Positions 9,001-12,000 of a stretch of 64,000 nt of DNA are shown here, piece after piece (the first letter of the stretch is position 1; each line of letters starts with the position of its first letter). This DNA is from a virus, in the IMG/VR virus record IMGVR_UViG_3300029922_000007, positions 32,001 to 96,000 of that record. One strand, written 5' to 3'. The position numbers are program-made.

Positions 9001-12000
9001 TGAGTTTGAATCCCTATTTCGATCCGAACAAGAAGCGGTTACATTATTTAAATCGGACGAAGGCTCTAGACTTTACGATCAGTTCTTGCTTAAAAAAGAA
9101 ATCGATTTCAAACATACTCCAAAATTCGGCCCCATTAGTTCAGTAGCTAAGATGCCGGGCATTCCTATTGGGCAGACTAAAAGCGGCAAAGATGTAATGA
9201 GCCATCTCAAGCCTAACGACTATAAGGGTTGGTCTACTCAAGACCACAGAGACGCTGGGAATATTCACTATTCTAACGCTGAAGCTGGTAAGGGGGTTCC
9301 AGGTGCTACCCATTTTGATAGCGCTAAAAGGCACTTAGCTTTTGCTAACAAAAGTGAACCCATGGCTAAGGGAGAAGATCTTAAAAAAGACGCTAACATG
9401 GCCGCTCCTCCAGCTGAACCAAATGCTGCTAATGCTCAATCTATGCAAAATGGAGGTACATCTGGCGGGACATCTTTTAGTCAAGCTATGTCCAATCTCT
9501 CAAGCGGACTCGGGCTTAGCAAAAAAGATAAATCGAAACAAAAACCTCTTCAGAAGGCCGTAGAGGCTGGAAGTTATAATGCAGCTCCTTCCTCATTAGT
9601 TAATGGCGCAGCTTATCAGGTTGAAGGGCTTTCTTCAAAGCAAGCAAAGACTGGAGCTGAAGATCACAATTTTCAGGGCACCAAGAAAAAGACTGATTGG
9701 AATAAGCGCTCTAAGGACGAGTACGAGCGTTGGCCTCAAAGAGAAGCTTTTGAGAAGTTTATGTCTGCTAGGATGCCTCATCTTGCTCTTGGAGAGATCA
9801 AGGCTGTTGGCCGCGCTCTGGCCCTAAGTAAGTCTTTAGATCTAGAGAGATCCTTAATTCTACTTGTTGACAAAAAACGTAAATAGTTCTATGATATAAC
9901 CATATTATGTTGATTTACATGATAACCAATAAAATAAGCGGAAATCGATATATCGGACAAACAGTCCAAAGGTTGGAGAAGCGATGGTGCCAACATTGCA
10001 ATCTGACTCCCAACTCTAAACACAGAAATATGCCTATTGTGAGAGCCATCCAAAAGTATGGCAGGGAGAACTTTGAAATCAAAGTATTGGCTAGATGCGC
10101 CTCTATTGAAGAAATGAATCACAGAGAAGAATACTACATCAAGATATTCAACACGTTATCTCCCAATGGGTATAATTTGGACAGCGGTGGTAAAAATAGA
10201 AGGACCCATCAATCAACCAAAGACAAGCTGTCTAAGATACACAAGGGAAGGCCGGGGAAAGCACCCTCTCAAGAAACCAGAGATAAAATAGCCAAGGCTA
10301 ATTTTGGTAAAAAGTGCTCGAAGAAAACTCGAAATAAAATGTCTGAGTCTAGATCTGGGTCGAACAATCCTAATTTTGGCGGCAAATCCGTTACGGAAAA
10401 ACAAAGGCAGGCATTAAGAGAGTATAGTACGGGAAGACCCTCTCCTAGACGTAAGAAAGTACTTTGCGTTACAACTGGAACAGTTTATCCATTTCTTATG
10501 GAAGCCGCTAAAGTATTGGGAATAAATTTTCAGGCAATTGCTAGAGTTTGTAGCGGCGAAAGACCTCACACGCACGGACTAATTTTTAAGTATATTTAGT
10601 TCTTTACTTCCTAGCCGTCTTACCATATAGTCTTAGATGTAGCGGGTGTACTACAGGGTAACACCCCATCCAAGGATAGGGTTCGAAACCGATTCCAGAG
10701 CGCTATTACTGCCAAGGATTCTTGGCGGGTAAGTGTTTTAGCGGCCCGCTACATTTTAAAAGGAATCTTATGCCTAAAGCTATCTTGGAATTCAATCTCC
10801 CCGAAGAACGCCATGAATTCGAAACAGCCTCAAATGGCCAAAACTACCTATCCGCCCTCCATGATCTCGATAACTACTTGCGTTCTAAGCTCAAGTATGA
10901 AGAATTGCCAGATCAAGTTAGGGAAGCTTTGCAATCCACTAGGGATGAGCTTCACGCTATTTTGCTTGATAATGGTGTAGAGATTTAATTTGTTCTTGCT
11001 ATTCTATTCGACATGATATAATCTTAGTTGTAAGGCAGGTTTGAGTTAGTATCCTTGATTGACGTGGATACGGCTTAGACCTAGATAAGGAGCCCCCATG
11101 CTATACTTAAACGGTCTTCCCGTTCCCACCACTATGTTTTCAGACAATACCTCTCAGGTCTGGAAGCTCCCCGAAGAAATCCTCACTACAACCAATTTTG
11201 CTCATGTAACTTGGGAGTTTAGCAATGAAGGTGAATTCCTTCAACTTGCTCAACTTAAGTTGCTCCTAGATCATTACGATTTTAGGACAGTACTCAGACT
11301 TCCCTATCTTCCTTATGGTCGCCAAGATAAGGAGCCTAGCAATACCGCTACATTTGCTCTTTATGCCTTCGCTGAACTTCTCAACCATCTTGGGTTCGAG
11401 GAAGTTATCTGCATGGACCCACATAGTTCTGTGGCCGAGGAGCTTATCTATAATTTTAAAGCTATTTACCCTGTAGATAAGATCTATGAGGTCGCAAAGC
11501 TTGTAGAAGCAAACCTTTTCTGTTATCCAGATGCTGGCGCTTTCGAGAAATATATCAATCTGCTTAAGGGTGGCCATATCTATGGTGAGAAGGTTCGAGA
11601 TCAGCTCACCGGCAACATTACAAGCTATAAACTGATTGGAACGCCTATCGGAACTGTTCTCATAGTGGACGATATTTGTGATGGCGGTATGACATTTAAA
11701 CTTTTGGCCAAAGACCTACTGGCTGCGGGTGCAAAGAGCGTGGTGCTCTTCGTGACTCATGGGATCTTTTCGAAGGGAACTAGAACTCTCTTCGAATCGG
11801 GTATCCAACGGATTTTCACTCACGCTGGTGAAGTAAGTGAACGTCAAGGCACAATTCAAATATAGGATATTATATATGAAAAATCTGAACGCAATGTTGT
11901 TGGCCGATTTCTATAAGGTTAGTCATAAAAATATGTACCCGGTTGGTACCGAAGTGGTGTTTTCAACTTGGACCCCTCGTGCTAGCCGTATGAAAGGCGT

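Follow-up and report, generated by a model that had tools for sequence, protein, structure and literature searches.

We analysed a stretch of viral DNA 64,000 nucleotides long (hereafter the window; positions 32,001 to 96,000 of the IMG/VR record IMGVR_UViG_3300029922_000007), in which the product of a prohead protease gene carries, well inside its chain, a second version of the N-terminal arm (N-arm) of the major capsid protein (MCP) of the same phage. This phage and Myxococcus phage Mx1 are related, with 47% identity in the MCP and 35% in the catalytic domain of the protease. The genes and protein parts concerned are given below in window coordinates, where an arrow marks a predicted or known cut, E is the expectation value and pLDDT is the predicted local distance difference test score of AlphaFold2 (AF2) models.

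8462 to 9886, plus strand: prohead (head-maturation) protease gene, 474 amino acids; matches PHROG 1028, head maturation protease (E 2e-9), and is 35% identical to the putative prohead protease of Mx1.
8462 to 8986, plus strand: catalytic domain of the protease, residues 1-175, with an assemblin or HK97-gp4-type fold (AF2 pLDDT >90; Foldseek).
9149 to 9361, plus strand: small folded insert in the protease linker, residues ~230-300, a beta hairpin and two helices (pLDDT 85-98; occupancy 0.81 in relatives).
9542 to 9634, plus strand: copy of the capsid cut site and N-arm, protease residues 361-391, with its core at 9548-9631 (BLASTP, hhalign).
9548 to 9559, plus strand: predicted self-cleavage site L363-Q364-K365↓A366, aligned with MCP K10↓A11 and with the maturation sites of phages A511 and phi812.
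9689 to 9883, plus strand: C-terminal three-helix domain of the protease, residues 410-474 (pLDDT 90-96), conserved in relatives and in Mx1.
4684 to 6081, minus strand: MCP gene of the SPO1 gp6.1 or phi812 type, 465 amino acids; matches PHROG 752 (E 4e-39) and is 47% identical to the Mx1 MCP.
5977 to 6060, minus strand: MCP residues 8-35, made up of a predicted cut site, L8-M9-K10↓A11, and then the N-arm; the block aligns with the start of the mature MCPs of A511 and phi812.
6115 to 6993, minus strand: scaffolding protein gene, 292 amino acids, with nine [LMI]-x-K-[SAG] sites.

Read on the plus strand, on which the protease gene lies, positions 9548-9631 translate to LQKAVEAGSYNAAPSSLVNGAAYQVEGL (the minus-strand reading of the same positions is meaningless), and positions 5977-6060 translate on the minus strand to LMKALEAGSYNAAPSTLVQGAAYQIEDL, which is residues 8-35 of the MCP. 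The two blocks agree at 22 of 28 residues and at 55 of 84 bases, a DNA identity of 65% that includes no long identical run. When the whole proteins are compared by BLASTP, this block is recovered with an E value of 8e-11 and there is no other significant match, and a profile-profile comparison of the two families with hhalign likewise yields a single match of 31 columns (probability 96.5%, E 7e-10), spanning protease residues 361-391 and MCP residues 6-36. A search of the whole 166,169-bp genome with a hidden Markov model (HMM) of the motif finds two copies in total, one in the protease and one in the MCP. Most of the identical residues are differently coded, with the same codon at 6 of 22 when counted from the pairwise alignment and at 5 of 21 when columns 9-35 are counted by script; a serine common to both blocks, for example, is encoded by TCC in the protease gene but by AGC in the MCP gene. 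The original prediction, made from this sequence, that the protease carries a protein-level copy of the capsid N-arm in which most identical residues are encoded differently, is thus borne out.

The position at which the shared block begins can be related to known capsid maturation. In the GenBank record of Listeria phage A511, the mature capsid protein (mat_peptide) begins after residue 23, ...ALK↓SFTTGYG, and in PDB entry 9row the 439-residue chain of a phi812-type MCP starts with SFQ, which corresponds to residue 25 of the 463-residue chain in 5lii and follows VVK. When the sequences are aligned, both of these starts fall on K10↓A11 in the window MCP (LMK↓ALEAG) and on K365↓A366 in the protease (LQK↓AVEAG). 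The protease copies of all phages examined have a hydrophobic residue at P3, lysine at P1 and a small residue at P1', and on the removed side the similarity of the shared block extends no further than P3. Lys-365 is invariant in 45 proteases, as are Pro-376 and Ala-384, and in the MCP residues K10, A11, L12, E13, G15, P21, L24, Q26 and E33 are invariant among 33 sequences. Since the start of the block coincides exactly with the capsid maturation cut, we read it, from these alignments, as a copy of the cut site L-x-K↓A together with the 25-30 residues of the arm that are retained on the mature capsid protein. This register was missed by the original prediction, which had offered docking into the procapsid lattice or, alternatively, a role as timing or decoy substrate, and it is a better fit to the substrate alternative than to docking pure and simple. 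Cleavage after the conserved glutamate near the end of the motif, in the style of T4 or phiKZ, was also considered and was rejected, both because this residue is Q or R in Pseudomonas phage Dolphis and Bordetella phage PHB04 and because the A511 and phi812 data put the cut at the first lysine of the motif.

The short motif around the cut recurs in the scaffold. The nine [LMI]-x-K-[SAG] sites of the window scaffold compare with 0.8 expected (11-fold, p 3e-7), which makes it the most enriched open reading frame (ORF) in the genome, and the scaffolds of every related locus hold between 3 and 14. Three further ORFs, all on the minus strand, are also rich in such sites: one at window positions 19205-19819 and two that lie at the window start or just beyond it, at genome positions 23215-23832 and 31585-32079, with 5, 5 and 4 sites, respectively, versus ~0.5-0.6 expected. 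On the strength of the motif, these are candidates for internal head proteins processed by the protease.

Conservation of the arm copy was followed in a related set of 71 loci from IMG/VR. An HMM of the MCP N-terminus matches the protease and no other ORF in most of these loci, and a protease-specific HMM detects the block in 49 of the 55 complete proteases that adjoin the MCP and in all four of those encoded far from it, giving 53 of 59 complete proteases in total. In one clade (L010, L013, L027 and L028, genomes L081-L084) the protease gene lies far from the scaffold-capsid pair, at ~20-30 kb from the MCP gene in three genomes and ~130 kb (linear numbering) in the fourth, and the arm copy is kept. 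The copy is the best-conserved region of the protease: mean identity to the window is 0.55 over the copy, as compared with 0.48 over the catalytic domain and 0.46 over the C-terminal helical domain, and ranges from 0.04 to 0.30 in the linkers. The same duplication reaches named phages with MCPs only ~25% identical to that of the window; the arm copy is present in Mx1, Dolphis and PHB04, in Thermus phage Lalka8 (as a weaker match), and in Bacillus phage SPO1 (E 4e-12), A511 (E 3e-13) and Staphylococcus phage phi812 (E 2e-12).

The two segments also co-vary across the related phages, which was the check suggested with the original prediction. The arm of a protease is more similar to that of its cognate MCP (identity 0.600) than to those of shuffled partners (0.537), and 0 of 10,000 shuffles come up to the cognate figure. 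When each of 15 clades is reduced to one representative, the identities are 0.595 and 0.517, and in none of 200 resamples of 500 shuffles did a shuffle attain the value seen for the cognate pairs. Related genomes are not independent, so these shuffle counts overstate the significance, but the signal nonetheless comes from several separate clades. It is visible as lineage-specific residues common to both proteins: AAYQ in the window clade, SPDR in L050, PDS in the L052-L074 clade, GNY..KPS in L039, GNF in Mx1 and GAVL in L064. A higher similarity within than between genomes is also what gene conversion between the two DNA segments would leave behind, that is, concerted evolution without selection on a shared function. 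However, cognate pairs use the same codon at 34.4% of identical residues and non-cognate pairs at 33.8% (p 0.35), the shared residues that are specific to a lineage are themselves differently coded (Ser AGT versus TCA, Arg CGG versus CGT, Tyr TAC versus TAT), and the two segments of the window, as described above, have diverged at the DNA level without retaining a long identical run. Given that codons are equally alike within and between genomes, and that the lineage-specific residues are differently coded, selection on the peptide is favoured over homogenisation of DNA; we consider gene conversion most improbable, with a slight residual chance left to very old conversions since erased at silent sites. 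Together these data show that the arm copy is real, ancient, selected and co-evolving with the capsid protein. The view that it is an old duplication held by selection on the peptide stands, on its retention across such distant MCPs, its co-variation with the cognate MCP and the codon comparison.

Within the protease, the arm copy is embedded in a recurrent arrangement of parts, which runs from the catalytic domain through a linker with the small folded insert to the capsid-arm copy and then the C-terminal helical domain. The ORF as listed spans 8402-9886 from a TTG at 8402; homologues begin at the equivalent of the ATG at 8462, which by this comparison is most likely the start rather than the TTG. 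The top ~30 PDB matches of the catalytic domain in Foldseek are herpesvirus proteases, with probabilities of up to 0.99 (0.98-0.99 for the best of them) and E values of only 0.01-0.1. His-41, Ser-130, Glu-132 and Gly-133 are invariant in 45 protease sequences, and His-41 and Ser-130 are candidate catalytic residues. A Pfam search with E values up to 1 returned no match for the proteases of the window, Mx1, Dolphis, PHB04 or Lalka8, and the family appears to lie outside the current Pfam models (Peptidase_S78 and S77). The insert is a confidently predicted fold inside an otherwise disordered linker, and the arm copy itself is disordered in the AF2 monomer model (pLDDT 44-57). Relatives share this layout, with a catalytic domain of ~175 amino acids, a linker of very variable length and a helical domain of ~65 amino acids, the start of the arm copy ranging from residue 187 to residue 484.

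A profile of the arm-plus-helical module matches 430 representative clusters; among the matches inspected there were no free-standing or non-protease carriers of the module, all being proteases or fragments of proteases. Short matches were considered as free-standing modules and rejected, since they look like inner segments of proteases whose genes were called too short. In many relatives (Mx1, L001:2024-5719; L053, L074, L057 and L022) the module is followed by a long tail, of 974 amino acids in Mx1 and 653 in L053. Pfam searches of the protease, the scaffold and the long tails gave nothing except DUF5661 at the end of one tail. These tails may be cargo that is carried into the head.

The explanation that best accounts for the evidence as a whole, and that we hold to be somewhat better than an even prospect, is that of a self-cutting protease whose arm copy binds the partner of the real arm inside the prohead. 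The enzyme would cut after the invariant lysine of [LMI]-x-K↓[SAG], once in the MCP (K10↓A11), at many places in the scaffold and once in its own chain (K365↓A366); judged by the aligned sites, this self-cleavage is quite probable. Before it takes place, the arm copy would bind whatever the real capsid N-arm binds in the prohead, whether this is the scaffold, as in P22, or the arm-docking site of a neighbouring capsid subunit, and in so doing would load the protease into the prohead beside its substrates. Such a tethering role for the arm copy we regard as evenly poised. Self-cleavage would then leave a C-terminal fragment with a capsid-like N-terminus. A copy that must fit the partner of the real arm would be expected to co-evolve with the capsid protein of its own phage.

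The argument for tethering starts from the length of the conserved block. Given that 4-6 residues suffice at the scaffold sites, the further 25-30 conserved and co-varying residues of the protease need another reason, the simplest being that copy and real arm share a binding partner; either candidate, scaffold or neighbouring subunit, would explain the co-variation. The disorder of the arm copy in the monomer model is as expected for an arm that becomes ordered only on its partner, and docking into the capsid lattice, as originally proposed, remains plausible. In the procapsids of P22 the helix of the coat N-arm binds the helix-loop-helix of the scaffold, and on maturation it extends into the neighbouring subunit (PMC9965877). 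Protease peptides have been detected in purified virions of related phages (PMC3601020, PMC5618024, PMC12282133), which is compatible with a retained fragment without demonstrating one.

Several points weigh against this explanation. The copy is absent or decayed in L030, L041, L043, L045, L061 and L062, which fall in two subclades and have intact MCP N-termini, and because it has been lost there it must be dispensable in some backgrounds. Absence or decay in related proteases, named at the outset as what would tell against the original prediction, is therefore seen locally (6 of 59, in these two subclades), and everywhere else the segment is kept. Not all positions of the motif are universal, as the glutamate replaced in Dolphis and PHB04 illustrates. 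Self-cleavage is predicted from the alignment of sites, and the scaffold sites lack arm sequence, so the long P' part would be unneeded for cleavage and its proposed role is drawn from its conservation. In the AF2 monomer model the arm touches neither the catalytic nor the helical domain, and no partner is suggested by it. As for the MCP, its AF2 model (mean pLDDT 58, N-arm 25-48) is too poor for placing an arm-docking site, and a complex prediction with MCP 36-465, the scaffold and protease 355-474 scored 0.00 in a run without controls, which counts neither for nor against binding.

Three other readings have to be weighed against that of a tethering arm. The arm might be a built-in substrate or timer, in which it acts as an extended recognition element (an exosite ligand) and the self-copy as an intramolecular pseudo-substrate that occupies the enzyme until assembly, or competes with cleavage of the capsid protein, and so sets the order and timing of maturation without tethering. 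Such a role would suit a copy that begins at the cut site and includes P3-P1, and a shared enzyme pocket would also yield co-variation with the capsid arm. Assemblin-fold proteases, however, read short motifs; the scaffold sites share just ~4-6 residues with the capsid site, which is evidently sufficient, the co-varying positions lie 8-20 residues away from the scissile bond, and AF2 does not put the arm on the catalytic domain of the monomer. Self-limiting autoproteolysis is known for T4 gp21 (PMC12991175), which lends the timer a precedent, and on balance we rate it as unlikely, though still to be taken seriously. Alternatively, the released C-terminal fragment might stay in the head as a minor capsid component or placeholder, its arm occupying those N-arm docking sites, around the portal vertex for instance, that capsid subunits are unable to fill, or holding such sites until expansion. 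The cleaved fragment would indeed have a capsid-like N-terminus, protease peptides are found repeatedly in purified virions of related phages, and the very long tails after the module in some relatives (up to 974 amino acids, in Mx1) could ride along. Against this, the published mass spectrometry is silent on which part of the protease is present and in what copy number, the copy is lost in some subclades, and the present analysis yields no structural support; a placeholder role thus seems rather improbable. Much the same doubt attaches to the further proposal that the fragment is a low-copy head component and the arm-plus-helical module a natural encapsidation tag that carries tails into the head.

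The third reading, that only the cut site is functional and the rest of the copy is the relic of an ancestral protease-capsid fusion or partial duplication, takes its plausibility from gene order, in that the protease, scaffold and capsid genes adjoin in most relatives, which makes a partial duplication or fission easy to imagine. A relic would not, however, be expected to be the most conserved region of the protease, as the P' part is, or to persist between phages with MCPs only ~25% identical, and the P' part co-varies with the arm of the cognate capsid protein, whereas the linkers on either side of it cannot be aligned. We therefore disfavour this reading and consider it very unlikely.

Some features of the surroundings were noted in passing. 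Three genes resembling homing endonucleases lie around the head genes, at 4043-4579 (minus strand), 7669-8451 (plus strand) and 9907-10599 (plus strand); by motifs in their translations two are of the HNH type and one of the GIY-YIG type, and the gene at 7669-8451 stops 10 bases upstream of the protease ATG. Residues ~300-400 of the MCP form a confidently modelled all-beta insertion (pLDDT 81-91) whose sequence weakly matches immunoglobulin light chains and a PHROG labelled "esterase/lipase"; this is probably an immunoglobulin-like surface domain. In Lalka8 (L077:10550-12720) the record annotates an array of clustered regularly interspaced short palindromic repeats (CRISPR) and a TnpB-family gene directly downstream of the capsid gene.

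How prohead proteases enter the prohead and how their action is timed is known for a few models, namely the tail signal of HK97, the core of T4 and the scaffold fusion of herpesviruses. If the proposal is true, a protease that carries the capsid cut site and N-arm as a co-evolving copy would represent a different solution, and the feature is conserved over a very large group that extends from soil phages to phages of Bacillus, Listeria and Staphylococcus and includes phages of the SPO1, Twort/K and A511 types, which find use in therapy and biocontrol. The proposal makes definite predictions, in that it specifies where the protease should cut itself and which peptide should act as tether, and expects specificity for the cognate capsid protein. 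In addition, [LMI]-x-K↓[SAG] offers a rule for predicting processed proteins in these phages, and the arm copy is a candidate peptide for loading cargo into capsids.

Among the closest known systems are the phages of the SPO1/Twort type, whose MCPs (A511 Cps, phi812/K MCP and SPO1 gp6.1) are homologous to the window MCP. The MCP profile matches 9vel (Gp6.1) with an E value of 2e-29, 5lii with 4e-16 and 9row with 1e-15, and the single sequence matches the gp6.1 or phi812 type with 2e-12. In the alignment the L-M-K↓A-L-E of the window falls on the ALK↓SFT of A511 and the VVK↓SFQ of 9row, and the proteases of these phages hold the same kind of arm copy. The removed propeptide differs, being predicted at only 10 residues in Mx1-like phages versus 23-24 in the A511 and phi812 type, as does the protease, which in the window has a long variable linker and an extra folded insert and in its relatives often a long tail. 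The MCP cut is already known for A511 and phi812-type phages, whereas the arm copy in the protease is, as far as we found, apparently undescribed: no published description of a block shared by protease and capsid protein turned up in the full-text literature searched, which is weak evidence given its thin coverage of subscription journals.

The precursor of herpesvirus assemblin (UL26 type, with a release or R site and a maturation or M site) has the same catalytic fold, as the Foldseek matches indicate, and offers a parallel in its organisation. Behind the catalytic domain it has an internal self-cleavage site conforming to the consensus of the sites in its substrates, a site whose counterpart in the window protease would be the LQK↓A predicted from sequence, and the portion after that site tethers the enzyme inside the procapsid. 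The herpesvirus tether is, however, scaffold sequence from a nested gene, with a C-terminal tail that binds the capsid protein, whereas the window protease copies the capsid N-arm instead. Comparison of the protease and scaffold families with hhalign gave a probability of 0.5%, that is, no homology between them, and the arrangement is therefore not a nested-gene one of the herpesvirus or lambda type.

Short peptides that load a protease or cargo into proheads are reportedly found in HK97, in the C-terminal targeting tail of gp4 (said to have been described by Duda and colleagues in 2013), and in T4, in the capsid-targeting sequences studied by the Black laboratory, and both the gp4 tail and the T4 peptides are said to be cut afterwards by the prohead protease. 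These signals are not known to be copies of a capsid protein and lie at the extreme C- or N-terminus, whereas the peptide of the window protease lies within the chain, reproduces the capsid arm and has a folded helical domain behind it. In Staphylococcus phage 80alpha, an N-terminal leader of the capsid and scaffold proteins is cut by the host protease Prp, so that there, too, two head proteins have a conserved block around a common cleavage site. In 80alpha, however, the shared block is the leader that is removed and the enzyme is that of the host, whereas in the window phage the shared block is mostly the part that is retained, and one of its two carriers is the enzyme itself.

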